This document shows positions 39,789-63,028 of a DNA stretch of 64,000 nt, piece by piece (position 1 is the stretch's first letter; each line of letters opens with the position of its first letter). The translations under genes and the position numbers were made by a program. The stretch is from Lachnospiraceae bacterium. GTDB taxonomy: Bacteria; Bacillota; Clostridia; Lachnospirales; Lachnospiraceae. Under the pieces are notes generated by a model. That model worked only from the letters and a program-made list of their open reading frames with translations, searched no databases and was not told the origin of the DNA. The stretch covers positions 65,201-129,200 of the forward strand of contig JBGUKX010000017.1 of the NCBI GenBank assembly GCA_045114695.1, written 5' to 3'.

Positions 39789-39831
39789 AGCAGCCTCCTT
39801 TTTATAACCGTTTCCGTCGTGCCTGTCAGAT

Positions 39832-40071
39832 GATTCCTTCCCGCGGCCGCTTCCGCCGCGCCTCACAGAGATTCCTTCCCGCAGCCGCTTCCGACGCGCC
39901 TCGGAGTGATTCCTTCCCGCAGCCGCTTCCGCCGCACCTCGGAGTGATTCCTTCCCGCGGCCGCTTCCACCGCGCCTCACAGAGATTCCTTCCCGCGGCC
40001 GCTTCCGCCGCGCCTCGGAGTGATTCATTCCCGCAGCAGCTTCCGCCGCACCTCGGAGAGATTCATTCCCG
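39832..40071. repeat. 38-bp tandem array, about 6.3 copies, whose last units are the 3' end of larC
   Basis: Units at 39832, 39870, 39908, 39946, 39984, 40022 and 40060; consensus GATTCCTTCCCGCRGCCGCTTCCGCCGCGCCTCRSAGW. Confidence 0.93.
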
Positions 40072-41566: not shown

Positions 41567-41570
41567 TCCC

Positions 41571-43603: not shown

Positions 43604-43705
43604 GCCGCCTGAAGGACCGGCGGCGGAACGTAGCTTGGGCCGCCTGAAAGACCGGCGGCGGAAAGATCTCATGCCGCCTGAAACACCGGCGGCGGAACGG
43701 AGCTG
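43604..43705. repeat. Three tandem hairpin-forming 34-35-bp units directly upstream of the ThuA-like gene
   Basis: GCCGCC-TGAA(G/A)(G/C)ACC-GGCGGC-GGAA at 43604, 43639 and 43673. Confidence 0.88.
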
Positions 43706-44404: not shown

Positions 44405-44452
44405 CGGGGAGCCTGTCCGCAGGGCCCGTCTGCGCTTCCGCTCCGCGCGGAT

Positions 44453-45283
44453 TTACCCGATCCTGTTCGTGAGCCTGCCGAGCCCGTCCGCCTCGCAGAC
44501 AACCACGTCTCCCTTTTTCAGATATCTGGGCGGCGTAAATCCCATGCCCACGCCGGCGGGCGTCCCCATGGAAATGATCGTGCCGGCCGTAAGGATCATG
44601 CCCGCGGAGAGATCTTCTATCACGTCCCCGATCCCGAAGATCCAGTCCGACGTGCTGCCATTCTGGCGCAGCTCGCCATTTACATAGCAGCGAATGCCGA
44701 TCTTCGGGGGATACGGGAATTCATCGGCCGTGACGATCCAGGGCCCGATCGGGGTAAAGCCGTCCAGGCTTTTTCCTAAGTAAAACTGTTTATGCCGGGT
44801 CTGGATTTCTCTGGCGGAGATATCGTTGAGGATCGTATAGCCGAAGATGTATTCCGCCGCGTCCTCCTTTCTGACCCGGCAGGCGTCCTTCCCGATAATG
44901 ACGGCGACCTCCGCCTCATAATCCACCTGAGCCGTCACTTCAGGATGGCTGTCCACGATACCGTTGTCAGGGACCGCCTCATTGACGCGTTTCGAGAAAT
45001 AGACGGCATAATTTTCCCTTACCATCGTCGGATGAAATTTCGCCGCTTCGTTCGTATGATCGGCAAAATTCATGCCGAGACAGATGACGTCGTGGGACGG
45101 CCTCGGAATCGGGGCAAGAAGCGTGACCTCACTGAGAGGAATGCCGCTGTCCGGCAGCCCGGAGGGAAGGCCTTTCCGGATCAGGTCTTCCATCGATGTG
45201 ACGCCGGGGACCGGAATGATGTCCGTGCCGGCGGCGACTCCCACCGCTTCTCTGTTTTCGTAAAGGAATGTTGCAAGTCTCAT
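44453..45283 (-). CDS. Fumarylacetoacetate hydrolase family protein
   Basis: ICLGMNFADH, VDYEAEVAVIIG, NDISARE, GKSLDGF and GTPAGVG motifs; start at MRLATF. Confidence 0.92.
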   Translation of the reverse strand: MRLATFLYENREAVGVAAGTDIIPVPGVTSMEDLIRKGLPSGLPDSGIPLSEVTLLAPIPRPSHDVICLGMNFADHTNEAAKFHPTMVRENYAVYFSKRVNEAVPDNGIVDSHPEVTAQVDYEAEVAVIIGKDACRVRKEDAAEYIFGYTILNDISAREIQTRHKQFYLGKSLDGFTPIGPWIVTADEFPYPPKIGIRCYVNGELRQNGSTSDWIFGIGDVIEDLSAGMILTAGTIISMGTPAGVGMGFTPPRYLKKGDVVVCEADGLGRLTNRIG

Positions 45284-45322
45284 ATCCGTTGATCCTTTCT
45301 GTGCCAAATCTCCTGTCTGTCA

Positions 45323-45397
45323 GTATCCGGCAGATGCTGCTTCGTGACCGGATCCCGGTTGATAATCGTATCGTAAACGTCTCTCGTAGAATTTGTC
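45323..45397 (-). repeat. Diverged 75-bp copy of an internal segment (46189-46263) of the neighbouring AAA ATPase gene
   Basis: Manual alignment gives 66/75 identity with no gaps. Confidence 0.88.
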
Positions 45398-45454
45398 AAA
45401 CGCGATAAGGCCGGCATCAGGCACCGGCCTCTCTGTGAAAAGGTAAGAGGCGGC

Positions 45455-45613
45455 TTACAGCTTCATCAGGATCTCCCGGATGTCTCCGTTGATGCAGATG
45501 GATCTGTCTAAGATTTCATCCGGCGCGTAGGCCTCGCCGTAATTCAGGCAGGCATATGTCGCGTCCGGCCACTGGTTTACGATCTTCCAGAACCGGAACT
45601 TAATGTTGCTGCC
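45455..45613 (-). pseudogene. C-terminal remnant of a Sir2-like (class M/SirTM-type) sirtuin
   Basis: Manual translation: GSNIKFRFWKIVNQWPDATYACLNYGEAYAPDEILDRSICINGDIREILMKL*; no start codon. It resembles, from memory, the IKYPFW...YACLNYGEA...SICI.GDI tail of clostridial Sir2-family proteins. Confidence 0.7.
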
Positions 45614-45614
45614 T

Positions 45615-46814
45615 TTATTCAATCTTCAGCAGCCAGTCTGATAAATTGTGAATCTTGATGCCTTCATAGTCATAGGTCTCATGTCCGGTATTGGCCAGGA
45701 TAAGTTTTGGATACGCATCCTTGATCTTGAGCAGGGGATCATACTCCCGTTCAAAGGTCTCCGGGCGTGAGATATCATCGCTGACCTGGATATACATCTT
45801 TTCATCGCCGCGGACTGCCACAAAATCCACTTCCTTCTGATACAGCTTTCCAACGTAGACTTCATAGCCTCTTCTCATCAGTTCGATACAGACAATATCC
45901 TCATACATCCGTCCGTAATCAAGATTACGTCTGCCAAGTCTGGCAAAGCGTATGCCGGTATCACTCAGATAGTATTTCACGGAAGTCTTCAGGTATTTCT
46001 TTCCGCGGATGTCATATCGGCGCACGCCATAGAAAACATACGCATCGCACAGATATTTGATATAGTTTCCGACAGTCTTGTGATTGGTCACAACCACATT
46101 TGCCGTCAGTGTATCACTGATGTTGTTGGGCGAAGTCAGATTGGATACGTTATCCATCATGAACTCTGCCAGATGCTCCAGCGTTGTCGTATCCGGCAAA
46201 TGATACTTCGTGACCAGATCCCGGTTGATGATCGTATCGTAAACGTCTCTGATATAGTTTGTCCGGTCCCGCTCCGTGCGATATTCATAAGAGCCAGCCA
46301 GACCGCCTTTGATCACATAATCATCAAAGAGCTTTGCTATATCCTGCTCATCTGCATAGTAACGGCAGAATTCCGCGAAGCTGAACGGGAACACATGGAT
46401 CTCTATATACCGCCCTGTAAACAGCGTTGTCAGATCAGAACTTAGAAGGAAAGCGTTGGAACCGGTGATATAAAGATCATATTTCCGCGAAGTATGCAGG
46501 CTGTTGATCGCCAGCTCAAATTTCTCACAAAGCTGCACTTCATCCACGAATACATAGTTCTGTTTTCCGGCAGCATAATGGCTTTCAATGTAATCATACA
46601 GAGCATGGTATTCCTTTAATCCTTCATATTTCAGATCAAAGAAGTCCACAAAGATTATATTGGCCTCCGGCTGAATCTCTCTGATTCTGCGGATATATGC
46701 CTTCATCAGTTCCGACTTGCCGCTGCGGCGCACTCCGGTAATGATCTTGATATCCGGGGTTCCCATAAGATCAAGAAGCCGCTGCATGTATTCTGGTCTT
46801 TCAATATAGTTCAT
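45615..46814 (-). CDS. AAA_14 ATPase with DUF4143 C-terminal domain
   Basis: GVRRSGKS, FVDEVQ, ITGSNA, KYYLSDTG and EVDFVA...IQV (PD-(D/E)xK-like) motifs; visibly AT-richer than the flanks. Confidence 0.9.
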   Translation of the reverse strand: MNYIERPEYMQRLLDLMGTPDIKIITGVRRSGKSELMKAYIRRIREIQPEANIIFVDFFDLKYEGLKEYHALYDYIESHYAAGKQNYVFVDEVQLCEKFELAINSLHTSRKYDLYITGSNAFLLSSDLTTLFTGRYIEIHVFPFSFAEFCRYYADEQDIAKLFDDYVIKGGLAGSYEYRTERDRTNYIRDVYDTIINRDLVTKYHLPDTTTLEHLAEFMMDNVSNLTSPNNISDTLTANVVVTNHKTVGNYIKYLCDAYVFYGVRRYDIRGKKYLKTSVKYYLSDTGIRFARLGRRNLDYGRMYEDIVCIELMRRGYEVYVGKLYQKEVDFVAVRGDEKMYIQVSDDISRPETFEREYDPLLKIKDAYPKLILANTGHETYDYEGIKIHNLSDWLLKIE

Positions 46815-46953
46815 TATATCACTTCCGAAATTGAAAATTTTTTAAAGTTTCGCACCTGTGTTCGCAGTTTACTCTGAATTGCCCTGTTTGTCAATGTGAG
46901 AAGGCTTTTCAGCCTGTTTCATATGTATGGGGCAGCATGCGCTGCCCGCCGGG

Positions 46954-47344
46954 TCAAAGCTCCGGAATATCGTATTTCGGGACCAGATCCTTTTTGTAGA
47001 ACTCGACCATGGATTTCAGCTCACGGTTGCTGACGGTCGTCTTTTCATCCTTCCAGATATTCTTGCCGTCTTCACCCTGACCGGCCAGATACGGTTTGGT
47101 AAGAGTTGTGTGGCCATCCGCAGGAATCTTAGCCCAGAGGCCTTTGCCGTACTGATTCTCATGGACAGCCTTTGCCGGAAGCACAAAGCCTGCCCAGGGA
47201 GTATGATCACTGCGGTCCGCATTCGGGATTACAATCTTCAGCATCTCGCGGCCGTCTTTTGTAGTGAAGGGTTCTACCGTTCCTTTCCCGAAATGCAGGG
47301 TGATCTCTTCGCTCTGTTCATAGTCCAGTCTTTTGGGCAGCCAT
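46954..47344 (-). pseudogene. Probably frameshifted hypothetical gene of mobile-element type
   Basis: The open frame extends upstream of the track ATG (47244) as ...RLDYEQSEEITLHFGKGTVEPFTTKDGREM; removing one A from the A4 run near 47331-47334 joins it to the ATG at 47344. Confidence 0.4.
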
Positions 47345-47388
47345 ATGAGTATGACAGAGTCATGGAACTGAACTGGTTATGAAGATCT

Positions 47389-47430
47389 CTACTGGACAAT
47401 TTTTAGATAGATAATAATATTGTCCGGTAG
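47389..47430. promoter_or_regulatory. 12-bp inverted repeat around an AT-rich 18-bp spacer (operator or recombination site)
   Basis: CTACTGGACAAT-N18-ATTGTCCGGTAG, one mismatch; a further TGGACAA follows at about 47434. Confidence 0.55.
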
Positions 47431-50048: not shown

Positions 50049-53000
50049 TCAGTTCTTCTCCTCCGCCTTGTATTTCCTGTACTTCTCTCTCGAGAGGCGC
50101 GCCCCCTCCTCAAAGAGAACCTTCGCGTTCTCCGGGAACGTGCGCCGGAGAGACGTGTACCGCACCTCGCCGTCCAGGAATTCCTCGTAGGCGGCCGTCG
50201 GCTCCTTTGAGTCCAGCGTGAACTTCTGTTCCGCGGCGGGGTTAAACCGGTAGAGGAACCAGTAGCCGGTGTCCACTGCCTTTTTCATCTCGTCCTGAAC
50301 CTTCGCGGCGCCGCACCTCAGACCGTGCTCCTGGCACGGGGCGTAGGCGATGATCACGCTCGGTCCCTTGTACGCCATGGCCTCTTTGACGGCCGTGATC
50401 AGCTGGTTGTAGTCGGCCCCCATCGCCACCTGGGCGACGTAGACGTTGCCGTAGGTCATCAGCATGCTGCCGAGATCCTTCTTCGGCTGCTTCTTTCCGG
50501 ACGCCGCGAACTGGGCGACCGCGCCCACCGGCGTGGCCTTGGAGGACTGGCCTCCCGTGTTGGAGTAGACCTCCGTGTCGACGATGAGGACGTTGACGTC
50601 CTCGCCGCTGGCCACCACGTGGTCCAGGCCGCCGAAGCCGATGTCATAGGCCCAGCCGTCGCCGCCGTACATCCAGAAGGTCTTTTTGGAGAGCTGGTCC
50701 CTGTAGCGCAGGATCGTCCTGGCTCCTTCGTCGTCCCGCTTCTCCAGAGCGGCCGCGAGGGCCTCGCCGGCGGGGGCGGAGGCATCGAAGTCGTCGTAGG
50801 ACGCCAGCCAGGCGTCGATCGCGGAGAGCGTCTCCGGATCCGTGCAGCTTGCCCGGTACTCCTCGACGCGGCTCTTCTGAGCCAGTCTCTGCTGGGAGAC
50901 GGACAGCACCATGCCGAGGCTGAACTCCGCGTTGTTTTCAAACAGGGAGTTGGACCACGCCGGCCCGTGTCCCTTCTGGTTCACCGTATAGGGGATTCCC
51001 GGCATCGCGGAGCCCCAGGCCTGGGAGCATCCCGTGGCGTTGGCCCAGTAAACGCGGTCGCCGAAGAGCTGGGTCAGCAGCTTGGCGTAGGGCGTCTCGC
51101 CGCAGCCGGCGCAGGCCGCCGAGAACTCAAGCAGCGGTCTCCGGAACTGGCTTCCCTTGACGGAATACGGATCGAAGATATCCTCCTTCTGCGGGAGTGA
51201 CAGGGCGTATTCCCAGGCGGCCGACGTGTCCGCGGCCTCTCCGGCGGGTACCATCGTGAGAGCCTTCTCCTTCGCGGGACACACGTTTGCGCAGCTTCCG
51301 CATCCCGTGCAGTCCGCCTCGCTCACCTGCAGCGTGTAGTACATGCCCTTCGCCTGGGCGCCTTTTGCGACGGCGGTCTTCATGCCCTCCGGCATGCCGG
51401 CCTTCTCCTCCTCCGTCAGGAGATAGGGACGGACCACCGCGTGGGGACATACGTAGCTGCAGCGGTTGCACTGGAGGCAGAGCGCCGGATTCCACACCGG
51501 CACCCGGGCCGCGATGCCTCTCTTCTCGTAGGCCGTGAGGCCCATGTCCATGACGCCGTCCTTGTACTTCATCAGGCGGCTGACCGGGAGGTCGTCGCCC
51601 TTCTGGGCGTTGATGGGCTCGAGAATCTCCGTGACGACGGCCGGGACGTCTCTGGCCGGCGCGGGGGCGTCCTCGGCGTCCGCCCAGGAGGCCGGCACCT
51701 CGACCCTGACCCAGGCGTCGGAGCCCGCGTCGATGGCGGCGAGGTTGCGGTTCACCACGTCCTCGCCCTTCGCGAAATACGTCTTCTCCGCGGCGGCCTT
51801 CATGTAGCGCACGGAGTCCTCCACCGGGATGACCGGCATGAGGTGGAAGAAGGCGGACTGCAGCACCATGTTGAAATGGCCTCCCAGCCCGAGCTTCCGG
51901 GCGATGCCCGCTCCGTCGATGGTATAGAGGCGGATCTTGCGGCGGGCGATCTCCCGCTTCGCCTTCGCGGGAAGGCGCCGCTCCAGCTCCCCCGCGTCCC
52001 ACGGGCAGTTGATCAGCAGCGTCCCACCCGGCTTGACCTCCGAGGCGATGTCGTATTTTTCGATGTAGGTCGCGTTGTGGCACGCGATGAAGTCGGCGGA
52101 TTTCACGTAGTAGGACGACCGGATCGGCCGGTCCCCGAACCTCAGGTGGCTCTTGGTGACGCCGTAGGACTTCTTGGCGTCGTACTCAAAGTACGCCTGG
52201 GCAAACTTGTCCGTGTGGGAGTTGATGATCTCCACCGTGTTCTTGTTGGCGCCGACGGTTCCGTCCGAGCCCAGTCCCCAGAACTTGCAGCTGACCAGTC
52301 CCTCGTCCTCCGGGCGGACCGTCTCCGTCTCCTTCAGCGACAGGTGGGTCACGTCGTCGTTGATGCCGATGGTAAAGCTGTTCAGAGGCGTTTCGGCGCG
52401 GAGATTCTCAAAGACCGCGGCGATCTGGGAGGGCGTGGTGTCCTTGGAGGACAGGCCGTAGCGGCCTCCGACGACCGTCAGGTCCGCCCGTCCGCGAAGG
52501 GCCGTGCAGACGTCCTGGCAGAGGGGCTCGCCGGCGCTTCCCATCTCCTTCGCGCGGTCGAGGACCGCGACGGCGCGGCAGGTCTCCGGGATGGCTTCGA
52601 TGAAGCGGCGGACGTCGAAGGGACGAAACAGATGGACCTGGACGAAGCCGGTCTTCTCTCCCCGGGCGTTCAGGAAATCCACGGTCTCCTTCACGCAGCC
52701 CGAGACCGAGCCCATGGCGACGATGACGCGGTCTGCGTCAGGCGCGCCGTAGTAGTTGAAAATGTGATAGTCCCGGCCGGTGACGGCGTTGATGCCCTTC
52801 ATGTACTCCTCGACGACGTCGGGGAGGGCGGCGTAGTCGCCGTTGCTGGCTTCCCGGATCTGGAAGAAGATGTCGGGATTCTGCACGGTCGCCCGGATCA
52901 TCGGATGCTCGGGGTTGAGCGCCTGGGCGCGGAACGCGTCGAGGGCGTCCCGGTCGAGGAGCGCGGCGAGATCCCGGTAATCCATCTGCTCCACCTTGTT

Positions 53001-53549
53001 CAGCTCGTGGGAGGTACGGAACCCATCGAAGAAGTGCAGGAAAGGAATCCTGGCCTTGATCGCCGACAGGTGCGCCACGCCGGCGAGGTCCATCACCTCC
53101 TGGACGTCGCCGCTGGAGAGCAGGGCGAAGCCGGTCTGGCGGCAGTTGTACACGTCGGAGTGGTCCCCGAAGATCGAAAGGGCGTGTCCGCCCACCGTCC
53201 GGCTCGCGACGTGAAGGACGCCCGGGAGACGCTCGCCCGCGATGCGGTGCATCGTGGGGATCATCAGCATGAGACCCTGGGAAGACGTGAAGCTCGACGC
53301 CAGGGCGCCTGTCTCGAGGGCGCCGTGCACCGCCGCGATCGCGCCGGCCTCCGACTGCATCTCCACGAGACGCACGCTCTGCCCGAAAAGGTTCTTTTTG
53401 CCCTTCGCGGCCCACACGTCGGTCTTTCCCGCCATCGGCGACGACGGCGTAATCGGATAGATCGCCGCGATCTCGGTAAACGCGTAGGCGATATAGGCCG
53501 CCGCCTCGTTGCCGTCGACGGTCACGTACTGTTTCTTTCTCTCAGACAT
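50049..53549 (-). CDS. nifJ: NifJ-type pyruvate/2-oxoacid:ferredoxin oxidoreductase
   Basis: YPITPSS, EMQSEAGA, GSDGTVGA, two CxxCxxCxxxCP, ACAGCGE, GGDGWAYDIG and NTGGQ motifs. Confidence 0.93.
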   Translation of the reverse strand: MSERKKQYVTVDGNEAAAYIAYAFTEIAAIYPITPSSPMAGKTDVWAAKGKKNLFGQSVRLVEMQSEAGAIAAVHGALETGALASSFTSSQGLMLMIPTMHRIAGERLPGVLHVASRTVGGHALSIFGDHSDVYNCRQTGFALLSSGDVQEVMDLAGVAHLSAIKARIPFLHFFDGFRTSHELNKVEQMDYRDLAALLDRDALDAFRAQALNPEHPMIRATVQNPDIFFQIREASNGDYAALPDVVEEYMKGINAVTGRDYHIFNYYGAPDADRVIVAMGSVSGCVKETVDFLNARGEKTGFVQVHLFRPFDVRRFIEAIPETCRAVAVLDRAKEMGSAGEPLCQDVCTALRGRADLTVVGGRYGLSSKDTTPSQIAAVFENLRAETPLNSFTIGINDDVTHLSLKETETVRPEDEGLVSCKFWGLGSDGTVGANKNTVEIINSHTDKFAQAYFEYDAKKSYGVTKSHLRFGDRPIRSSYYVKSADFIACHNATYIEKYDIASEVKPGGTLLINCPWDAGELERRLPAKAKREIARRKIRLYTIDGAGIARKLGLGGHFNMVLQSAFFHLMPVIPVEDSVRYMKAAAEKTYFAKGEDVVNRNLAAIDAGSDAWVRVEVPASWADAEDAPAPARDVPAVVTEILEPINAQKGDDLPVSRLMKYKDGVMDMGLTAYEKRGIAARVPVWNPALCLQCNRCSYVCPHAVVRPYLLTEEEKAGMPEGMKTAVAKGAQAKGMYYTLQVSEADCTGCGSCANVCPAKEKALTMVPAGEAADTSAAWEYALSLPQKEDIFDPYSVKGSQFRRPLLEFSAACAGCGETPYAKLLTQLFGDRVYWANATGCSQAWGSAMPGIPYTVNQKGHGPAWSNSLFENNAEFSLGMVLSVSQQRLAQKSRVEEYRASCTDPETLSAIDAWLASYDDFDASAPAGEALAAALEKRDDEGARTILRYRDQLSKKTFWMYGGDGWAYDIGFGGLDHVVASGEDVNVLIVDTEVYSNTGGQSSKATPVGAVAQFAASGKKQPKKDLGSMLMTYGNVYVAQVAMGADYNQLITAVKEAMAYKGPSVIIAYAPCQEHGLRCGAAKVQDEMKKAVDTGYWFLYRFNPAAEQKFTLDSKEPTAAYEEFLDGEVRYTSLRRTFPENAKVLFEEGARLSREKYRKYKAEEKN

Positions 53550-53572: not shown

Positions 53573-54385
53573 TTATTCCGTTTCAATATGATAGAGTCCG
53601 GCGCAGTTCTTCTCGAAAATCCGCCCGTACTCCTCTTCGGTAAAATTCATCTCTTCCATGAACGCCAGGTCGTCTTCCTGGAACCACATGGGATAGTCCG
53701 TCCCGAACATGACCCGCCGGGTTCCGAAGGCCCGGATGATTTCCTCCGCCCTCTCCTTCGTCAGCCACGGAAAGGACGACGAGGTGTCGACCATGATATT
53801 GGGGAAGTCCGGAAGTAGCCGGACCGCCCGGTCCCACACGCTCCAGCCTCCCAGATGCGCCCCGACGAACTTCAGGCGGGGAAACGTCCTGAGGACGTTT
53901 GCGATCCGCTCCGGATTGGAATAATCATACCTGAAATCCCCGGTGTGCACCAGTACCGGCAGGTCGTTCCTTTCGCAGAGCTCATAGATCCGGAAGGCCT
54001 CCTCGCTGTCGGCGCGGAATCTCTGGAAATCCGGGTGGAGCTTCACTCCCTTAAGCCCGAGCCGCATCAGTTCGGCGAGATCCTCCTCCGGATGCGCGGA
54101 TGCAGGATGCATCGCGCCAAGTCCCGTGAAGGCGCCTCCGGACTGTCTCACGGCGTCCGCCAGAAAAGTGTTGATGCTGTGGACCTGCTCCGGCTTCGTG
54201 GCCACCGAATGGACCACGAAATGCGATATTCCGGCCTTTTCCCCGGATTTCCGCAGGCTGTCCGCCGTCCCGTCGTGATGGCACGAGGCCGGCAGTCCGT
54301 CGTAAAACCGGTCCACCGAGGCCACCGCCTTCTCCGCGATGGCCCGTGGGTAGATGTGACAGTGGCTGTCGATGATTCTCTTCAT
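53573..54385 (-). CDS. Amidohydrolase_2-family metallo-hydrolase/decarboxylase
   Basis: IDSHCH, GVKLHP, VHTG, AHLGG and FGTDYP motifs. Confidence 0.88.
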   Translation of the reverse strand: MKRIIDSHCHIYPRAIAEKAVASVDRFYDGLPASCHHDGTADSLRKSGEKAGISHFVVHSVATKPEQVHSINTFLADAVRQSGGAFTGLGAMHPASAHPEEDLAELMRLGLKGVKLHPDFQRFRADSEEAFRIYELCERNDLPVLVHTGDFRYDYSNPERIANVLRTFPRLKFVGAHLGGWSVWDRAVRLLPDFPNIMVDTSSSFPWLTKERAEEIIRAFGTRRVMFGTDYPMWFQEDDLAFMEEMNFTEEEYGRIFEKNCAGLYHIETE

Positions 54386-54424
54386 GCTTCCGCCTGTATT
54401 CCCGCGCTCCCGAAGGACCGTATC

Positions 54425-56923
54425 TTACGCGGTTTCGATGCTGGCGGCCTTTTCCAGCCCGAGCTTCTTCACCGCTTCCTCTCTCATCTTGTACTTCTGG
54501 ATCTTTCCCGCGTCGTTCATCGGGAAATGGTCGACGAAATCGATATACTTGGGGACCTTGTGCTTGGCCATGTGGTCCATCACGAACTTCTTCATCTCCT
54601 CGACCGTCATGGTCTCGCCCTCCTTCAGGATGATGCAGGCCATGATCTCCTCGCCCATCGCCTGGTCGGGAACGCCGATGACCTGCACGTCGCTGACCTT
54701 CGGGTGGGTGTAGATGAACTCCTCGATCTCCTTGGGGTAGATGTTCTCGCCGCCGCGGATGATCATGTCCTTGAGGCGCCCGGTGATGCGGTAATTGCCC
54801 TCGGGCGTCCGGCAGGCGAGGTCCCCGGTGTGGAGCCATCCGTCCCTGTCGATGGCGGAGGCCGTGGCCTTCGGCATCTTGTAGTAGCCCTTCATGATGT
54901 TGTAGCCGCGGGCGACGAACTCGCCGATCACCTCATCCGGGCAGTCCTCGCCGGTCTCGGGATCCACAATCTTGCATTCCACCTCGGGGAACGCGCTGCC
55001 GACGGTGGAGACACGGACCTCCAGGGAATCCGTCGTCCGGCTCATGGTGCAGCCGGGGGAAGCTTCCGTCTGTCCGTAGACGATGACGATCTCCGGCATG
55101 TGCATCTTTTCGACGACGTCCTTCATCACCGCGATCGGGCAGGGGCTTCCCGCCATGATACCGGTCCTCATGTGGCTGAAATCCGTCTTCGGGAAATCCG
55201 GGTGGGACAGCATCGCGATGAACATGGTCGGAACGCCGTGGAAGGCGGTGATGTGCTCGTTGTGAATGCACGAAAGCGACGACTTCGGCGAGAAATACGG
55301 AATCGGCAGGATCGTGCCCCCGTGGGTCATGGTCGCGGTCATCGCCAGGACCATGCCGAAGCAGTGGAACATCGGCACCTGGATCATCATGCGGTCCTCC
55401 GTGGACAGATCCATGCCGTCGCCGATGCTCTTGCCGTCGTTCACCACGTTGTAGTGGGTCAGCATGACGCCCTTGGGGAAGCCCGTGGTGCCGGAGGTGT
55501 ACTGCATGTTGCAGACGTCGTTGACGCTCACCGCGGCGGCCATCCTGCGGATCTCCTCCACCGGCGTTCTGGACGCGTATTCCAGGGACTCCTCCCAGGT
55601 CAGCGCCCCCGGCATGCGGAAGCCCACGGTGATGACGTTTCTCAGGAACGGCAGGCGGCGGCTGTGAAGGGGCCGGCCCGGCCTGTTGTCGCGCAGCTCC
55701 GGGCAGAGCTCGTCGATGATCTTTTTGTAGTTGGAATCCCGGTAGCCCTCGATCATGACCAGCGTGTGGGTGTCGGACTGGCGGAGCAGGTACTCCGCCT
55801 CGTGGATCTTGTACGCCGTGTTCATGGTCACGAGGATCGCGCCGATCTTGGTGGCGGCCCAGAAGGTCAGGAACCACTGGGGGACGTTGGTCGCCCAGAT
55901 CGTCACCTTGGAGCCTGCCCTGACGCCCAGGGACACCAGCGTCCGAGCGAATTCGTCCACGTCGTCGCGGAACTCGGCGTAGGTCCTGGTGTAATCCAGC
56001 GTCGTGAAGCGGATCGCGGTCTGATCCGGAAACTCCTCCACCATCGTGTCCAGCACCTGGGGGAAGGTCTTGTCGATCAGCGTGCCCTTCTTCCAGACGT
56101 AGCGCCCCACGTGACGGCCGCTCCAGTACAGGTGCTTCTTTCCCCTCCGGGTATCCCCGTAGGGCTTCATGGCGTTCTCGAAGTGCGTCAGGATGATCTC
56201 GATGTCCTCGAGGCCCTCCGCCCAGGAGGGATCCCACTCGAGGGAGACGAAGCCGTCGTAGTTGACGGACCGCAGGGCGTTCATCAGGTCCGGTATCGGG
56301 AGGCTTCCCTCGCCGATGAGCTCCGGCGCGATCGCCCCGTCCTCCTTCCGGAAGTCGTGGATGTGGACGTGGCGGACGTAGGCGCCGAGATTGGAGATGG
56401 TGGTCTCCGCATCCTCGCCGGCCAGGACCGAGGTGGTGTACATGTCCCAGACCGCCGCGAGGCGGTCGTCCGAGAAGCGGTTCAGAAGGTCCCGCAGACG
56501 TCCCGTTTCCCCCAGCGCGCCGGCGGTCTCCACCAGGATCGTAACCGGCGTGTCCTCGACGGTCCCGAGCAGACGGCCGAGGGCCGCCCCGCAGACGTCC
56601 TGATCCGTCTCTTCCGTGTGGATGGCGATATAGTCCGACCCGAGATTGACGGCCGCCTCCAGGCACTCGGAAAATTCGTCCGGGAACGCCGGATCCGTGA
56701 AATCCCTGACCGTCCCGATGCACGGGATCGAAAGCCCCCTGCCGATCAGGTCCCTCCTCACGGAAGCCGAGCGGTCCGGGTTGACGGGGCTCGTCTTCCC
56801 CTGAAATACCGGTCCCCTGATATCAAAAAGCTCGATGCCCTGCATGCGCGTGCAGACGGCGACGTCGCAGAATTCTTCCCAGGTCTGCTGATTCCAGTTC
56901 TGCATTGAAAATGAAAGCTTCAA
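54425..56923 (-). CDS. Fusion of a xylose-isomerase-like TIM barrel (AP_endonuc_2) and an AMP-forming acyl-CoA synthetase
   Basis: N-terminal VET...WD...HVHIHD...SLEW; C-terminal QYTSGTTGFPKG, YGQTE, TGDL, RGGENIYP and GKIQK motifs. Start set at TTG 56923 behind GGAGG. Confidence 0.9.
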   Translation of the reverse strand: MKLSFSMQNWNQQTWEEFCDVAVCTRMQGIELFDIRGPVFQGKTSPVNPDRSASVRRDLIGRGLSIPCIGTVRDFTDPAFPDEFSECLEAAVNLGSDYIAIHTEETDQDVCGAALGRLLGTVEDTPVTILVETAGALGETGRLRDLLNRFSDDRLAAVWDMYTTSVLAGEDAETTISNLGAYVRHVHIHDFRKEDGAIAPELIGEGSLPIPDLMNALRSVNYDGFVSLEWDPSWAEGLEDIEIILTHFENAMKPYGDTRRGKKHLYWSGRHVGRYVWKKGTLIDKTFPQVLDTMVEEFPDQTAIRFTTLDYTRTYAEFRDDVDEFARTLVSLGVRAGSKVTIWATNVPQWFLTFWAATKIGAILVTMNTAYKIHEAEYLLRQSDTHTLVMIEGYRDSNYKKIIDELCPELRDNRPGRPLHSRRLPFLRNVITVGFRMPGALTWEESLEYASRTPVEEIRRMAAAVSVNDVCNMQYTSGTTGFPKGVMLTHYNVVNDGKSIGDGMDLSTEDRMMIQVPMFHCFGMVLAMTATMTHGGTILPIPYFSPKSSLSCIHNEHITAFHGVPTMFIAMLSHPDFPKTDFSHMRTGIMAGSPCPIAVMKDVVEKMHMPEIVIVYGQTEASPGCTMSRTTDSLEVRVSTVGSAFPEVECKIVDPETGEDCPDEVIGEFVARGYNIMKGYYKMPKATASAIDRDGWLHTGDLACRTPEGNYRITGRLKDMIIRGGENIYPKEIEEFIYTHPKVSDVQVIGVPDQAMGEEIMACIILKEGETMTVEEMKKFVMDHMAKHKVPKYIDFVDHFPMNDAGKIQKYKMREEAVKKLGLEKAASIETA

Positions 56924-57018: not shown

Positions 57019-58428
57019 TCAGGCTTCCTCGTACACAATCTTGTTGAGAGCGCTGAGATGCGCGCGGATCGACGCGCCGATGATGTCGGTGGAGATTCCG
57101 TTGCCGGAATAGACCCTTCCGCCCGCGCGGAGCTTGACGAGGGCGCTTCCCATGGCGTCCCTGCCCTCCGTCACGGTCTGGATCTGGAAATCGTCGAGCT
57201 CGTAGTGATGGCCGATGATCTGCTCGATGGCCTGGAAGGCCGCGTCGATCGGGCCGTCCCCGATTCCCACGCCGCGGATCTCCCGGCCGTCCTTCTCGAG
57301 GAGAATGTTGGCGGTGGCCGTGATCACATTTCCGCTGTTGATGACGTAATTTTTCAGTTTATAGGTCGAGGGGACCTGCATCGCGGAGCTCGCGACGATG
57401 GCGTCGAGCTCCTTCGTTCCCACGAAATGCTTCTTCTCCGCCACCGAGAGGAAGGCCTCGTAGACCCTGGCGTTGTCCTCCTCGGTGAGGTCGTAGCCGA
57501 GCTGGCGGACGACGCGGATCACGTCGCCGATCTCGTCGTTTCCGTCCAGGCAGACCCCGGAGGCGTCGCCGAGGGCGACGTTGGAAAAGCGGGAGGTTTC
57601 CTCCGGCTCCGGCTCGAGGATCCGGCCCAGCTGTCCCACGACGCGGTGGAGCTCCGTCAGGCGGACGCCGGTGGAGAGATCCAGGTCATTTCCCTTCACC
57701 TCCACGAACTTCGCCAGCTCCTCGATCGTCGGGTAGCCGTTGGGAAGCACGGTGCACTTCACGCCCGCGGCGCCTCTCTGAACCGCCGCCGCCGCGCAGG
57801 CGAGGGCCATGTTCATGGCGTCGCTGACCTCCACATAGAGCTCTATGTCGGCGAGGCCGGGGACGTTCTCCATGACGCCTCCGACAAAAGCGCCGAACTC
57901 GTCCGGCATCATGACGCCGGCGGTGTCGCAGACCGTGATCTTGTTGGCCCCGGCTTCCACCGCCGTGTTCAGGGCCTGATACAGAAACTCCGGCTCGGCG
58001 CGGGTGGCGTCGACGGCGGAGAATTCCACGAATTCGCTGTAAAAGCGGGCCTTTTTCACCTGGTCGGCGATGGCCTCCAGCATGGCGGGCGCCTTCCGGT
58101 GGCACGTGTATTCCATCTGGACGGTGGAGACGGGCGCGATGATGTTGAGCTTGGGCTTCTTCGCGGTGCGGACGCTCTCCCAGGTCTCCTCCACGTTTCC
58201 GGCGGCGATATCGACAGCGGCTGAGATCCGGGTGACCACCATGGAGGCGATGGTGCGGTTGGCGAGCTGGTCCGCCTTGCTCCCGGAGATCGGCGCCAGT
58301 TCGATCGTATCCGCCCTGAGCCGGTCAAGGCTGCGGGCGATCTCCAGCTTCTCCTTGAAGGACAGTTCCCTTCCGCGCGCGCTGCTTGCCTGTCTCAGTG
58401 TCATGTCGATGAATTTCAGTGTTCTCAT
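57019..58428 (-). CDS. LeuA/citramalate-synthase-like protein (DRE-TIM fold plus LeuA allosteric domain) lacking the catalytic metal ligands
   Basis: DMTLRQ in place of DTTLRD; VEVSD in place of VHCHND; C-terminal GDGPIDAAFQAI...AMGSALV...STDIIGAS allosteric domain. Start at MRTLKF (58428); the track's longer ORF runs into the T-box. Confidence 0.85.
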   Translation of the reverse strand: MRTLKFIDMTLRQASSARGRELSFKEKLEIARSLDRLRADTIELAPISGSKADQLANRTIASMVVTRISAAVDIAAGNVEETWESVRTAKKPKLNIIAPVSTVQMEYTCHRKAPAMLEAIADQVKKARFYSEFVEFSAVDATRAEPEFLYQALNTAVEAGANKITVCDTAGVMMPDEFGAFVGGVMENVPGLADIELYVEVSDAMNMALACAAAAVQRGAAGVKCTVLPNGYPTIEELAKFVEVKGNDLDLSTGVRLTELHRVVGQLGRILEPEPEETSRFSNVALGDASGVCLDGNDEIGDVIRVVRQLGYDLTEEDNARVYEAFLSVAEKKHFVGTKELDAIVASSAMQVPSTYKLKNYVINSGNVITATANILLEKDGREIRGVGIGDGPIDAAFQAIEQIIGHHYELDDFQIQTVTEGRDAMGSALVKLRAGGRVYSGNGISTDIIGASIRAHLSALNKIVYEEA

Positions 58429-58554
58429 GATTGCATTCCTTTCTCTCTGATGTGAACGCTCTTGAGGCCTCCCCGCCGCCGCGGGAAGAGGCAAAGATCC
58501 TGTCTGCTTCCCGCGCCGCGGCTTCTCCGACGGCTTCGCGGGAGGCTCCGGGGA

Positions 58555-58863
58555 TAAAAAACGTCCCGGAGGCTCAGACGCATATCTGACCTCCGGGACG
58601 ACTAGATGCACGATCTGATCGCGGTACCACCCGGATTGCTGCCCGAAAGCAGCCTCTCTTCGGCGCTCCATTAAGCGCCCGGCCTTGGTTACGGGGCCCT
58701 CCGGATCCCCCTACGCAGTCCGCCGCCCGCCGGTCTCTCCCGGAATAGCGTCGGTCCTTCAGGAAATCTGCTCTGGCATGAGACTGCTCGCCGCACTCAC
58801 ACCGGCTCACACCAGCCGCCGGCTCTCTGAAGTGGTGGTCAGTTCGCATAGTGCCGTCATCGC
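58555..58863 (-). ncRNA. T-box riboswitch, leucine specifier CUC
   Basis: Minus strand: stem I with AGAGAG and GGTG boxes, ACTG/CAGT and GGCA/TGCC pairings flanking CTCA (CTC at 58782-58780); T-box AATCCGGGTGGTACCGCG (58637-58620); terminator CGTCCCGGAGG...CCTCCGGGACG-TTTTTT (58600-58555). Confidence 0.93.
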
Positions 58864-59166
58864 ATTTGCTAACTGAAGAAGGATTTTAATGGATGAAAGC
58901 GCTTTTGTCAAGTCTTTCGTCCGCTCCCGGGGGCACGTCTTTCATCTGCTCCCGGAGGCGCCTCTCCTGGCAGACGTTTCTTTCCTCCCGGGCCGGAAAG
59001 CGTCCGCGCGAAAAGCGCCTTTCGCCGCAGTGTCCCTTGCCCGGCCCGTCCCTCTGCATTATACTGAAAGAGAACGGGGCAGACCCGCAGCGGACCGCAA
59101 AGAAAGCCCACTCTCCGTCCGGGGCCGAAGGGCCCGGGGACGGCCTATTTCCGGAGGTAAATATCG

Positions 59167-60579
59167 ATGAGAAAAACCAAGATTATCTGCACCATCGGAC
59201 CTGCCTGCGACACCGAGGAGATGCTGAAGGAGCTCGCCCGCGCGGGAATGAACGTGGCCAGGCTCAATTTCTCCCACGGCACCCATCCGGAGCACCAGGC
59301 GCGCATCGACAGAATCAAGAAGGTACGCGCCGAGATGAATCTCCCGATCGCCATCATGCTGGACACCAAGGGACCCGAATACCGGATCGGCACCTTCGCC
59401 AACGGCAAGGTCTCCCTCGAGGCGGGAAATCCGTTTGTGTTCACGACGGAGGACGTCACCGGCGACGAGAGCCGCGTCTCCGTCAGCTACAAGGGCCTTC
59501 CCGGCGAGCTTGAGCCGGGGGACACCATCCTCCTCAACAACGGACTCATGAACTTCCGGGTCGTCTCCGCCACCGGCACGGAGATCTGCACGGAGGTCGT
59601 CATCGGCGGCGTTCTCTCCGACCGCAAGAGCATGAGCTTCCCCGGGAAGCACATCCGCCAGACCTATCTCTCGGACCAGGACAAGGCCGACATTCTCTTC
59701 GGCATTCAGAACGACATCGACTTCATCGCCTGCTCCTTCGTCTCGGTCCGGCAGGATCTCCAGGACGTCCAGGATTTCCTCGACGCGAACGGCGGGGAAA
59801 AGATCGAGCTGATCGCCAAGATCGAGAACCAGACCGGCTACGACAACATCGAGAGCATCTGCTCGGCCTGCAGCGGCGTCATGGTCGCCCGCGGCGATCT
59901 CGGCGTCGAGGTTCCCTTCGAGAAGCTCCCCGGCATGCAGAAGCAGCTGATCTCCTCCTGCCGGATGCTGGGCAAGCGCGTCATCACGGCCACCGAGATG
60001 CTCGAGTCCATGATCCACAGTCCCCGGCCGACCCGCGCCGAAGCGTCCGACGTGGCGAACGCCGTCTACGACGGGACCAGCGCGGTGATGCTCTCCGGAG
60101 AGACGGCGGCGGGCGAGTACCCGGTGCTGGCGGTACAGACCATGGCGAAGATCGCCGAGGCGACGGAGAACAACATCCCCTACGACCGCCTCTTCCACGA
60201 CAACGAATTCCTGATCAAGAACGAGATCGACGCGATCTCCCACTCCACCTGCGGCATGGCCATCGACCTCAAGGCCAGCGTCATCGTCGCCTGCACCATC
60301 TCCGGCGTCACCGCCCGCATGGTCTCGCGCTTCCGCGCGCCGGTGGACATCATCGGTCTCACCACGGACGAACACACCTGGCGCAAGCTCGCCCTCTCCT
60401 GGGGCGTCACGCCGATGATGTGCGAGATGCTGCCCTCCACCGAGGTTCTGTTCTACACCGCGAAGAAGCTCGCGGCGGACGTCATGAACCTCAGCAAGGG
60501 CGACACCATCATCATCACCGGCGGCATCACCAACGGCCAGTCCGGCAACACCAACCTGATCAAGCTCGAGAAGATCTGA
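59167..60579 (+). CDS. pyk: Pyruvate kinase
   Basis: RKTKIICTIGP, ARLNFSHG, DTKGPE, AKIEN, MVARGDLG, ATEMLESM and PTRAE motifs. Confidence 0.96.
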   Translation: MRKTKIICTIGPACDTEEMLKELARAGMNVARLNFSHGTHPEHQARIDRIKKVRAEMNLPIAIMLDTKGPEYRIGTFANGKVSLEAGNPFVFTTEDVTGDESRVSVSYKGLPGELEPGDTILLNNGLMNFRVVSATGTEICTEVVIGGVLSDRKSMSFPGKHIRQTYLSDQDKADILFGIQNDIDFIACSFVSVRQDLQDVQDFLDANGGEKIELIAKIENQTGYDNIESICSACSGVMVARGDLGVEVPFEKLPGMQKQLISSCRMLGKRVITATEMLESMIHSPRPTRAEASDVANAVYDGTSAVMLSGETAAGEYPVLAVQTMAKIAEATENNIPYDRLFHDNEFLIKNEIDAISHSTCGMAIDLKASVIVACTISGVTARMVSRFRAPVDIIGLTTDEHTWRKLALSWGVTPMMCEMLPSTEVLFYTAKKLAADVMNLSKGDTIIITGGITNGQSGNTNLIKLEKI

Positions 60580-60583
60580 CAGG

Positions 60584-63028
60584 TCACGGCCTCGCGGCGC
60601 GCCCCATGACGAGCCGGATCTCATTTTCCTGCCGGAGGTCCGCCGCGGGGATATAGTTGTCCCTCATTTTCCTTCCGTTCAGCTCGAGGACGGCGCAGCC
60701 GGACTCGACATGGTCCGGATTTTCGACCACGATGTGAAGTACGCTTCCCCGGAATGATTTTCGGATCTCAAGTCCCTCCCATTCCGGGGGAATCGCGGGA
60801 TCAATCCGGATTCCTTCCAGATCGGGCCTCATTCCGAGAATTCCTTCCACCGACCCTACCATGACGGTCGAGGCGGTTCCCGTCAGCCAGTGCACGTGGG
60901 AACGCCCGAAGTGGGGGCTGGTCCGCCCTTCCGTGAACTGGCCGTAGCAGTAGGGCTCCATCCGGCGGATCTCCGCCTCCCCGTTCTGCGCCGCCGGACA
61001 GTTCTCCCGGTAGACGCGGTAGGCGCGCCCGCCGTGGCCGGCGAGGGCCTCCGCCAGGATCAGCCACCCCTGGGACTGGGAAAAGATTCCCCCGTTCTCC
61101 TTCACCCCCGCGTTATAGATCTGCATGAGGGCGCCGTCGAAGCCGTGCTCCCTGTAGGGCGGATCCATCAGGAGCGCCCCGTATCTGGTGTTGAGAAGGG
61201 CGTCCACGCTCCCAAGCGCCTTCTCCCTCTGTTCTTCATCCGCCAGACCGCTGATCACGGCCCAGCTCTGGGGGTTCAGCCACATGGAGGCCTCCGGATC
61301 GGTTCTCCTTCCGATCACGGCGCCGTCCTCCCGGAAGCCCCGGATGAAGCGGTCCCCATCCCAGCAGAGCCCGGCGACGAGCTCCCGCAGGTCCTTCTGC
61401 TTCGCGGCGAGGAACGCCTCGTACTCCGAATCCTTCCGGAAGGCCGCAAATTCCCTCAGAACCGTCATCGCGTAATAGTACTGGAAGGCCACGAAGGTCG
61501 ACTCGCCCGCGGCGCCCAGCCTCAGGCAGTCGTTCCAGTCGGCGTAGAGGCCGGCCGGCATCCCGTGGGGTCCCAGGTGGTTCATCGAGAACTCCAGCGC
61601 CCGCTTCAGATGGTCGTAGACGGTGTCCTCTCCCCTGTTGGCGTAGGGCACCACCTCGTCGAGGAAGGCCGTGTCCCCCGTCTCCGCCGCGTATTTCCAC
61701 ACCGTCGGGAAGAGCCACAGGGCGTCGTCCGCGCGGTAGGCGGGATGCCCCGTCTCCTTCACGTAGGAGGCGTCGTCGGGCGTGTCCTCGTGTCCCGCGT
61801 TGTGGGTGAACCGGACGAGGGGCAGGCCCGCGCCGTTGTCCGCCTGGGCGGACAGCATGAAGCGGAGCTTCTCCTTCGCCGCCTCCGGGGCGAGATGGAT
61901 CACGCCCTGGATGTCCTGCACCGTGTCGCGGTAGCCGTAGCCGTTCCTGAGCCCGCAGTAGATGAAGGAGGCCGCCCTGGACCAGGTGAAGGTCATAAAG
62001 CAGTTATAGGCGTTCCAGGTATTGATCATCGTGTCGAAGGCCGGATCCGGCGTCTTCACGCGGAACGCCCCCAGGCGCTCCTCCCACTCTTCCCGAAGCG
62101 CCCGGATCTCCTCCGATACGGTCCGGCGCAGGGCGCCGTTTTCCGCCGCCGTATAGCGCCCGATGATCTCCCGGATCTCCCCGTCGTTCTTCGCGCCGAG
62201 CAGGAAGGCCAGGTCCGCCGTCTCCCCGGGGAGAAGCCGGATCACGGCCGAGAGCGCGCCGCAGCCGTATTCGTTGTAATTCATCTCCCCGCCGAGGTCT
62301 CCCCTCTCGACGCCCGCGGGATTCGCGTAGCTCCGGTATGGTCCGAGGAAGGCGTCCCTGTCGCCGCAGAAGGATGAAACCGGCGCGCCCGCCAGCGCGA
62401 AAACGCGCTCCTCCACCTCGTTTCCGTCCTTATTCCCGGAAATGTCGACCCCGTCGAGATTTCCGTGGACGAGATGCGCGATCCTGTCGCCCCGGAAGGC
62501 CGTCCTCGTGATAAAGCGGGAGTACTGGAGGTTCACCTGGTCCTGCTCATAGTTTCTGTGGCTGGTGAACTCCGCGTATCCGGTAACGGTCAGCTCCCGC
62601 GGCCGGTCGGAATCGTTTCTCAGCGAAAGGGCCCAGACCTCATAGGTCTCTCCCTTCGGCACGTAGTAGGACGCCTCGCTCCGGATGCCGCGGTAGTCCG
62701 CGGAGATCACGGTATAGCCCAGGCCGTGCCTGCACTCGCTGCCGTAGACGGAGAGATCCTTCCCCACCGGCTGCCAGGACGCGGACCAGTAGTCGCCGTC
62801 CCCGTTGTCCCGGAGGTAGATGTACCGGCCGGGCGTATCCGAGCCGTCAAAATGATAGCGGAGAATTCTCCCGTCCGCGCCGGACTTCACAAAGCTGTAG
62901 CCGCCGGCGTTGCCGGAGATCAGGGCCCCGTAAGCCGGGGACCCCAGATAGTTCGCCCAGGGAGCGGGCGTATCCGGTCTGGTGATGACGTACTCTCTCG
63001 CTGCGTCGTCGAAATATCCGTACTGCAT
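60584..63028 (-). CDS. GH94 glycoside phosphorylase (cellodextrin/cellobiose/chitobiose type)
   Basis: YGYFDD..REYVITRP, GYRDTVQD, ADWNDCL, KENGGIF and WLTGTAS motifs. Confidence 0.92.
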   Translation of the reverse strand: MQYGYFDDAAREYVITRPDTPAPWANYLGSPAYGALISGNAGGYSFVKSGADGRILRYHFDGSDTPGRYIYLRDNGDGDYWSASWQPVGKDLSVYGSECRHGLGYTVISADYRGIRSEASYYVPKGETYEVWALSLRNDSDRPRELTVTGYAEFTSHRNYEQDQVNLQYSRFITRTAFRGDRIAHLVHGNLDGVDISGNKDGNEVEERVFALAGAPVSSFCGDRDAFLGPYRSYANPAGVERGDLGGEMNYNEYGCGALSAVIRLLPGETADLAFLLGAKNDGEIREIIGRYTAAENGALRRTVSEEIRALREEWEERLGAFRVKTPDPAFDTMINTWNAYNCFMTFTWSRAASFIYCGLRNGYGYRDTVQDIQGVIHLAPEAAKEKLRFMLSAQADNGAGLPLVRFTHNAGHEDTPDDASYVKETGHPAYRADDALWLFPTVWKYAAETGDTAFLDEVVPYANRGEDTVYDHLKRALEFSMNHLGPHGMPAGLYADWNDCLRLGAAGESTFVAFQYYYAMTVLREFAAFRKDSEYEAFLAAKQKDLRELVAGLCWDGDRFIRGFREDGAVIGRRTDPEASMWLNPQSWAVISGLADEEQREKALGSVDALLNTRYGALLMDPPYREHGFDGALMQIYNAGVKENGGIFSQSQGWLILAEALAGHGGRAYRVYRENCPAAQNGEAEIRRMEPYCYGQFTEGRTSPHFGRSHVHWLTGTASTVMVGSVEGILGMRPDLEGIRIDPAIPPEWEGLEIRKSFRGSVLHIVVENPDHVESGCAVLELNGRKMRDNYIPAADLRQENEIRLVMGRAARP

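Follow-up and report, generated by a model that had tools for sequence, protein, structure and literature searches.

We analysed a 64,000-nucleotide stretch of DNA from a Lachnospiraceae bacterium (assembly GCA_045114695.1, contig JBGUKX010000017.1, positions 65,201 to 129,200; the window), which carries an operon headed by a gene for a protein resembling LeuA, the isopropylmalate synthase (IPMS, EC 2.3.3.13). The LeuA-like gene lies behind a leucine T-box leader and is followed by a gene for a fused acyl-CoA synthetase, an amidohydrolase-family gene and a gene for a ferredoxin-dependent oxidoreductase (Table 1). Judged by its sequence, the protein is a LeuA paralogue that appears unable to perform the Claisen condensation and to have been kept as a non-catalytic protein, a reading which is well supported by the alignments described below. 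From the genetic context we suggest that it may sense leucine on behalf of the neighbouring synthetase.

The LeuA-like gene and its domains

The LeuA-like open reading frame (ORF) is intact from the ATG at 58428 to the stop codon at 57019-57021, both read directly (N-terminus MRTLKFIDMTLRQASS), and a purine-rich GAAAGGA is found just 5' of the start codon. The first-pass annotation of this DNA, made from the sequence without database searches, had already described an unbroken frame of 469 residues. The frame and the motifs it quoted are present as given, but the gene is located on the minus strand. A mechanically called ORF of 550 amino acids (57019..58671), which extends into the leader, was rejected as an artefact because all homologues share one start methionine, beginning with M[RKN]T.K.ID.

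Pfam searches assigned residues 4-263 to the HMGL-like family (PF00682, E 2.4e-36) and residues 339-464 to LeuA_dimer (PF08502, E 3.5e-31), the latter covering 126 of 131 profile positions. In contrast to these family-level matches, the NCBIfam equivalogs for LeuA, CimA and homocitrate synthase all scored far under their cut-offs: the best reached 290 bits against a required 532, the LeuA cut-offs range from 517 to 748, and the CimA models gave 66-72 bits against cut-offs of 450-950. An AlphaFold2 model was obtained with a predicted local distance difference test score (pLDDT) of 86, residues 276-290 being of low confidence. Using Foldseek, the barrel of this model superposed on the LeuA catalytic domains 3ewb, 3eeg and 3rmj at 1.7-2.2 Å, the full-length model matched M. 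tuberculosis LeuA, and the best fold match was BjuMAM1 (6e1j). As far as the model can tell, the LeuA fold with its TIM barrel and regulatory domain is thus retained.

Table 1. Coordinates of the LeuA-like gene, its leader, its predicted domains and the other genes of the operon (positions in the window).
Feature	Position	Strand	Remarks
Promoter-like site TTGACA-17-TAAAAT	58883..58911	minus	11/12 consensus matches; 14 nt 5' of the T-box
T-box leader, RF00230	58591..58869	minus	81.5 bits, E 7e-18
Intrinsic terminator	58556..58599	minus	GUCCCGGAGGUCAGA...UCUGAGCCUCCGGGAC, then U6; strong hairpin and U-run
LeuA-like gene, predicted catalytically inactive	57019..58428	minus	469 aa
HMGL-like TIM barrel, residues 1-265	57634..58428	minus	Pfam and alignments
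Shortened linker, residues 266-338	57415..57633	minus	subdomain I (HxxGIHxDG motif) deleted
LeuA_dimer regulatory domain, residues 339-464	57037..57414	minus	motifs GDGPIDAAF, YELDDFQIQ, DAMG(427)SA, STDIIGASIRA
Xylose-isomerase-like TIM barrel fused to AMP-forming acyl-CoA synthetase	54425..56923	minus	832 aa
Amidohydro_2 family protein	53573..54385	minus	270 aa; in ~40% of related operons
NifJ/PFOR-type single-chain pyruvate/2-oxoacid:ferredoxin oxidoreductase	50049..53549	minus	1166 aa; final operon gene

Loss of the catalytic apparatus in the barrel

To compare the protein with active enzymes, it was aligned to LeuA of E. coli MG1655 (Ec) and to three LeuA sequences taken from crystal structures; residue counts within the family refer to 75 members. 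All motifs reported in the first-pass annotation were recovered, namely TLRQASS (10-16), EVS (200-202), LPNGYPT (228-234), GPIDAAF (392-398) and STDIIGAS (446-453). The metal ligand Ec D14 is replaced by Q13 and the ligand pair Ec H202/H204 by E200 and S202, which agrees with the earlier view that the metal site appears gone, and none of the three positions is fixed within the family, distant members included. Position 13 is occupied by E (44) or Q (22) and otherwise by A, D, N, W, L or V, position 200 by E (39), Q (31) and others, and position 202 by S (55), N (7) and others. The glutamate of the GEQ motif (Ec E16) corresponds to S15 and varies between A, G, N and S across the family. In addition, the GERAGN loop after strand 8 is shortened by four residues (Ec VEGAMNGIGERAGN versus VKCTVLP, the gap and NGY).

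A further change lies outside the barrel. Subdomain I, which carries the HxxGIHxDG motif (Ec AFAHSSGIHQDGVLK..YE..PE..G), is deleted over ~27 residues in the LeuA-like protein and over ~27-40 residues in all members of the family. The first-pass annotation was right about the metal ligands and the GERAGN loop, but it understated the extent of the loss and missed this deletion. The accessory domain of IPMS is described in PMC9860122 as essential for catalysis. Triad, GEQ glutamate, GERAGN loop and subdomain I are missing in members down to 28% identity; since both deletions and the loss of the triad are shared over this range, a single origin of the family is indicated.

Several barrel residues are nevertheless kept in comparison with Ec LeuA: D8, T10, R12, E43, S101, E135, D140, R143, D168 and T169. 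Within the family, R12 is found in 68/75 and E135 in 67/75 members, D140, R143 and D168 are present in all 75, and position 169 holds T or S. E43 is invariant in one alignment (A1) and conserved to at least 90% in a second one of 109 close homologues (A2). A lysine, K224, has been gained where Ec LeuA has E226 and is near-invariant (72/75). The signature of the DRE-TIM metallolyases consists of an arginine and an aspartate on strand 1 and a glutamate on strand 2. It is incomplete here, with the arginine (R12) and the strand-2 glutamate (E43) in place and the aspartate replaced (Q13; E, Q or others in the family). For the M. tuberculosis enzyme, substitutions of R80 and E218 are listed in PMC10464499 among the changes that abolish activity.

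On the basis of these alignments, we consider it very probable that the LeuA-like protein has neither isopropylmalate nor citramalate synthase activity. A working synthase of either kind, using alternative metal ligands, would agree with the preserved LeuA fold, with the retention of R12, E135 and T169, and with the position of the gene behind a leucine T-box, where real leuA genes often sit as well (PMC2494555). Against such an enzyme stand the missing triad, GEQ glutamate, GERAGN loop and subdomain I, replacement residues that are not conserved, and scores far under every NCBIfam LeuA/CimA cut-off. Moreover, neither leuBCD nor ilv genes were found among the ORFs scanned in the 64-kb window, and the LeuA-like gene never adjoins leuBCD in the loci examined. 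We therefore regard a working synthase as highly improbable. The idea of a pseudoenzyme, which the first-pass annotation had put forward, held in every sequence test that we ran.

Conservation of the regulatory domain

Comparison of the 75 members revealed an uneven distribution of conservation along the protein. The C-terminal domain has a mean pairwise identity of 77%, compared with 49% for the barrel and 50% for the linker. The order is reversed in a small sample of canonical LeuA, five motif-positive sequences with the same barrel divergence, in which the regulatory domain reaches 37% and the barrel 49%. The first-pass annotation had stated that the allosteric domain is well preserved, and the degree of conservation turned out to be more striking than claimed.

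The motifs that this domain has in common with real LeuA, GDGP(I/V)DA, DA.G and STDI..AS..AY..A.N, are essentially invariant, and the family has an additional motif of its own, YELDDFQIQ.VTEG. Ec G462 aligns with G427, which is invariant both in the 109 close homologues and in a divergent alignment of 15 sequences. The substitution G462D of E. coli LeuA appears together with LeuA feedback in published papers. A related observation comes from CimA, whose isolated LeuA_dimer ('LA') domain is described as responding to isoleucine on its own (PMC13381585), which indicates that a LeuA_dimer domain can act as a stand-alone sensor. These comparisons show the regulatory domain to be better conserved than the rest of the protein, and selection appears to be concentrated there.

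Distribution, selection and expression of the family

Relatives of the LeuA-like protein are encoded in at least 588 GTDB species genomes, counting one genome per species. The carriers are almost all rumen or gut Clostridia (Lachnospiraceae, Blautia, Oscillospiraceae, Acutalibacteraceae and Christensenellales). Protein databases contain no fewer than 120 clusters (68-90% identity), almost all of them ~469 aa long, which bear the NCBI name 'hypothetical protein' and a generic JGI name, isopropylmalate/homocitrate/citramalate synthase. A profile search of 1.84 billion representatives yielded ~115 full-length clusters at 50% identity (453-497 aa), under which the canonical LeuA sequences (497-516 aa) rank from ~309 bits downwards. 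The loci closest to the window belong to Lachnospiraceae metagenome-assembled genomes from ruminants, with 81% identity.

In close pairs of homologues, the ratio of non-synonymous to synonymous substitution rates (dN/dS) of the barrel was 0.02-0.12. Only pairs with small dN were used, as the values of distant pairs (0.6-0.8) are spuriously high, most likely because the extreme bias in GC content at third codon positions (GC3), measured for the window, and saturation compress dS. Contigs from bovine metatranscriptomes of four runs match the LeuA-like gene with one or two mismatches. The first-pass annotation had proposed to look for shared substitutions under purifying selection among homologues; the catalytic losses are common to the family, although the replacing residues vary, and the close pairs point to purifying selection.

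The loss of catalytic motifs could also be read as the decay of a leuA gene into a functionless remnant. The frame is unbroken in every full-length homologue recovered (155 loci and ~115 clusters), the species range is wide, dN/dS in close pairs is well below 1, and conservation of the C-terminal domain is extreme. The synteny and the control by a T-box have likewise been kept, and the gene is transcribed in rumen metatranscriptomes. A pseudogene is ruled out by these conservation data, its probability being close to nil, and the earlier statement that the gene is unlikely to be debris is borne out by the same observations.

Damaged motifs were also seen in three other full-length LeuA homologues: P0255 (TLCEGER / HSQND), P0263 (TLCDGEQ / IRAYND / GIGKRAGC) and P0244, which is without GIHQDG. 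All three are 503-516 aa long and have kept the length of the accessory domain. From their sequences, they may represent further independent lineages of catalytically compromised LeuA.

T-box control

The leader upstream of the LeuA-like gene contains the T-box core GGGUGGUACCGCG at 58632..58620 and a leucine specifier CUC at 58782..58780, followed by an A. Owing to an insertion of ~50 nt, its score falls short of the gathering score for RF00230 (93), and the leader was recovered by an E-value search. A 93-nt stretch containing the terminator folds at -45.6 kcal/mol, which corresponds to z = -5.6 relative to shuffled sequences. Promoter-like sites, defined by consensus match, were found six times versus 1.1 expected from shuffles. 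Together, the RF00230 match, core, specifier and terminator agree with the earlier proposal that the gene is the first one behind a leucine T-box. In the B. subtilis ilv-leu operon, a CUC triplet is reported to confer leucine control (Marta et al., 1996, as cited in PMC2494555).

To follow the arrangement in related genomes, we collected 80 GTDB loci and an independent set of 80 metagenome loci. The T-box core was detected in 59/75 loci of the GTDB set (window included) and in 53/73 metagenome loci. Where the automatic rule resolved the specifier, it was CUC in 33 loci and CUG in seven, both of them leucine codons, and the stem flanking it shows compensatory changes among related loci. In two loci that are missing the core motif, L021 and L031, an Rfam search did not find a T-box, and a minority of loci is regulated differently, without this element. 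In a subgroup (L016, L018, L020-L023 and L025), a gene for a Xan_ur_permease-family transporter ends ~240 nt 5' of the LeuA-like gene (e.g. 8352-9755 in L021); most of these loci are without the core motif, and L021 is without a detectable T-box.

Pairing with an acyl-CoA synthetase

The second gene of the operon encodes a xylose-isomerase-like TIM barrel fused to an AMP-forming acyl-CoA synthetase. Its likely start is a TTG at 56923 with an AGGAGG 9 nt upstream, while the mechanical ORF extends to 56986. This gene is located directly 3' of the LeuA-like gene in every GTDB locus with enough contig and in all 64 metagenome loci that leave 600 nt or more for it. The gap between the two has a median of 3 nt and does not exceed 20 nt in 104 of 133 loci; in 34 loci the genes overlap by 4 nt. 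Such spacing is typical of translationally coupled subunits. Looking from the side of the synthetase, the LeuA-like gene was directly upstream in 2/2 cases; the underlying search with the N-terminal TIM domain returned mostly fragments from contig ends or frameshifts.

The N-terminal ~280 residues of the synthetase (56075-56923, minus strand) diverge much faster than the AMP-binding part. Among 57 orthologues, the metal ligands of this barrel are conserved to different degrees: E153 in 47/57, D181 as D in 24 and N in 30, H208 in 51/57 and E250 in 32/57. From these counts, it may be a second non-catalytic barrel of the module.

Further downstream, gene content is more variable. For loci with at least 5 kb of downstream sequence, an oxidoreductase is present in 33/47, 24 of them of the pyruvate:ferredoxin oxidoreductase (PFOR) type and nine of a three-subunit type that is unrelated to it. 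Of the same 47, eight carry an aminotransferase of class IV (IlvE-like according to Pfam) and 18 carry Amidohydro_2. Most loci have an oxidoreductase, an aminotransferase of this class or both on the same strand, and in L102, L121, L123, L127 and L146 the order of genes is permuted while the set is kept (e.g. oxidoreductase-IlvE-LeuA-like-synthetase). The gene pair thus belongs to a leucine-controlled synthetase/oxidoreductase module. The downstream synthetase and NifJ-type PFOR named as partners in the first-pass annotation are confirmed by Pfam, with the qualification that the fused synthetase is always present but NifJ only in about half of the loci.

A larger layout was noticed in L066 (14190-20590), where the pair is followed by a fusion of helix-turn-helix, cupin and AMP-binding domains (802 aa), a small ORF, a ParA/NUBPL-like P-loop protein and a three-subunit 2-oxoacid:ferredoxin oxidoreductase. 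The same layout is present in L055, L063-L069 and L075, labelled mostly as Acutalibacteraceae or Clostridia, and several of these loci carry IlvE. It looks like a larger operon for the assimilation of branched-chain acids.

The constant neighbourhood raises the option of a purely structural subunit, i.e. a dimerising scaffold for two synthetase chains, or a tether to the oxidoreductase through which isovaleryl-CoA would be channelled into the unfavourable reductive carboxylation, in both cases without ligand sensing. Genes that are always adjacent and tightly spaced would be expected for such a subunit, LeuA_dimer is a dimerisation module, and a protein interface could be built from family-specific invariant motifs of the surface type, YELDDFQIQ among them. 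Channelling complexes between DRE-TIM proteins and CoA-dependent partners are also known, and DmpG/DmpF-type structures are among the fold matches. However, the motifs shared with ligand-binding LeuA domains (GDGPIDA, G427, STDI..AS) are invariant as well, and a fixed tether agrees poorly with an oxidoreductase that occurs in two unrelated forms and frequently lies apart from the pair. Consequently, we judge a structural role without sensing to be unlikely.

A proposed role in isovalerate carboxylation

The carboxylation of isovalerate to leucine is a known route in the rumen (Allison et al., 1966, as cited in PMC10701908; PMC7356843), and for rumen bacteria, branched-chain volatile fatty acids serve as growth factors (Allison et al., 1958). 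By homology, the elements of this route, acid activation, a ferredoxin oxidoreductase, an aminotransferase and leucine control, co-locate in the operons described here, and the rumen habitat agrees as well. The operon most likely encodes this route. In our model, the leucine T-box would switch the operon on when tRNA-Leu is uncharged. The fused synthetase would convert isovalerate to isovaleryl-CoA, which the ferredoxin-dependent 2-oxoacid oxidoreductase would reductively carboxylate to 2-oxoisocaproate, and a branched-chain aminotransferase would finally form leucine.

Three enzymes are sufficient for this route, which leaves the LeuA-like protein without an obvious reaction to catalyse. Four features argue for a non-catalytic role, namely the missing catalytic motifs, the extremely conserved regulatory domain, the obligate pairing and the close spacing, and together with the synthetase as partner this leads us to propose a leucine-sensing subunit of the first step. 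The LeuA-like protein would bind to the synthetase at a near-equal ratio, and its regulatory domain would sense leucine and throttle the ATP-consuming step. The first-pass annotation had guessed at a regulatory subunit that binds leucine or at a scaffold, and the obligate tight gene pairing backs both guesses. We assign a probability of about 0.5 to the reading that the protein is a non-catalytic leucine-sensing subunit of an isovalerate synthetase in the isovalerate-carboxylation route, and the chances of a leucine-sensor subunit as such are equally balanced. Isovalerate as the substrate of the synthetase is a somewhat better bet and can be called probable. The wider proposal, with a LeuA pseudoenzyme as sensor of the isovalerate-CoA synthetase and the T-box module with oxidoreductase and IlvE as the genetic basis of isovalerate carboxylation, is more tentative than either.

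A different possibility is a re-purposed enzyme, in which the barrel would catalyse an extra step of this leucine-linked pathway without the classical metal site, e.g. by means of K224 together with R12, E135 and D168. It would act on 2-oxoisocaproate or an isovaleryl thioester, and the regulatory domain would keep its feedback role. This would account for the purifying selection on the barrel (dN/dS 0.02-0.12), for the retained pocket residues of LeuA and for the gain of K224. The former metal site is still polar, with E or Q nearly always at positions 13 and 200, and the two further barrel-type domains for which the model has no use, the synthetase N-terminus and Amidohydro_2, hint at additional chemistry. 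However, the conversion of isovalerate to leucine requires no additional step, the barrel is much less conserved than the regulatory domain, the reverse of what the small sample of active LeuA displays, and the former ligand positions interchange E and Q and are sometimes A, W, L, V, K or R. Furthermore, subdomain I, which contributes to acetyl-CoA binding and catalysis, is gone. In our estimation a re-purposed enzyme is therefore improbable, at about the level of the purely structural subunit.

A number of observations speak against the proposed leucine-sensing subunit. About a quarter of the loci are without a T-box directly upstream, and some operons consist of the LeuA-like/synthetase pair alone, with the oxidoreductase not nearby. 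A fusion protein of the LeuA-like protein and the synthetase was not found among the best 150 representatives, which include the ~115 full-length clusters. The closest solved relatives of the synthetase act on fatty, feruloyl or malonyl substrates, and the model leaves the roles of the N-terminal TIM barrel of the synthetase and of the amidohydrolase unexplained. The pocket residues of the barrel (R12, E135, D140, R143, D168, T/S169 and K224) exceed the needs of a scaffold and would fit a ligand-binding or catalytic role. In real LeuA, His379 and Tyr410 of subdomain I are described as needed for the allosteric response (PMC9860122), and due to the deletion of this subdomain the leucine signal would have to take a new path. 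Finally, it is from gene data that we infer the complex, the binding of leucine and the effect on the synthetase, and the same applies to feedback control and the isovalerate substrate.

Comparison with known systems

The LeuA-like protein shares the HMGL-like barrel plus LeuA_dimer plan and the link to a leucine T-box with IPMS, and has R12, E43, S101, the MEY motif, E135, D140, R143 and D168-T169 in common with it. In contrast, it is ~40-50 residues shorter and is paired with an acyl-CoA synthetase instead of leuBCD. CimA has a regulatory domain of the same family (PF08502) but retains every catalytic motif and is active; leucine as the ligand of the LeuA-like domain is deduced from the T-box.

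A parallel in logic may be HisZ, a dead paralogue of histidyl-tRNA synthetase (HisRS) which keeps the amino-acid site and makes HisG, the ATP-phosphoribosyltransferase, histidine-sensitive. As in HisZ, catalytic residues have been lost and a ligand-binding module retained. Fold and partner are unrelated, however, and complex formation and feedback are demonstrated for HisZ/HisG, whereas they are proposed for the LeuA-like protein. MAM (methylthioalkylmalate synthase) proteins and some plant IPMS isoforms are likewise derived from LeuA by domain loss, but they took the opposite route, keeping catalysis and losing regulation. DmpG/DmpF provides an example of a DRE-TIM protein encoded beside an enzyme of acyl-CoA chemistry, and 1nvm, 4jn6 and 4lrs are among the fold matches; unlike the LeuA-like protein, DmpG is an active metalloenzyme without a LeuA_dimer domain.

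A literature search found no description of this LeuA-like family, of a LeuA pseudoenzyme or of the operon, nor a paper assigning these genes or the LeuA-like subunit to the isovalerate route.

Other genes of the window

Apart from the operon, three regions deserve mention. Divergent from the T-box operon, a pyruvate kinase gene is followed by a gene for a GH94 phosphorylase of the cellobiose/cellodextrin phosphorylase family (59167-63028), a context which agrees with a fibre-degrading rumen or gut Clostridium. A run of minus-strand genes at 39090-42341 comprises an isochorismatase-domain gene (39090-40028), Ni_insertion (40025-41566) and an AIR-carboxylase-like gene (41571-42341), and is adjoined by a DUF1848 gene (42539-43471). 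The Pfam matches suggest functions related to the nickel-pincer cofactor (Lar-type). The region 43700-47400 forms an island of low GC3 (0.54-0.71 versus ~0.85 elsewhere) and was probably acquired horizontally. It contains an FAA-hydrolase gene (44453-45307), an AAA_14/DUF4143 ATPase gene (45615-46814) and two small ORFs. The remaining genes of the window are ordinary housekeeping genes of Clostridia.

The high GC content also gives rise to spurious long antisense ORFs, such as one of 1017 aa opposite the synthetase (53855-56908, plus strand). These ORFs cluster across loci as 'conserved' and are a trap for automated gene calling.

Implications

For the annotation of rumen and gut Clostridia, the main consequence is that automated reconstructions could score the LeuA-like gene as leuA and thereby predict de novo leucine synthesis falsely. 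The operon also offers concrete candidate genes for the conversion of isovalerate to leucine. The conserved stand-alone LeuA_dimer module could find use as a natural part for sensing leucine. If the proposed role is true, the family would clearly exemplify the conversion of a biosynthetic enzyme into a regulatory pseudoenzyme: the salvage pathway would have taken over an enzyme of de novo synthesis, stripped of its chemistry, for use as its feedback device.

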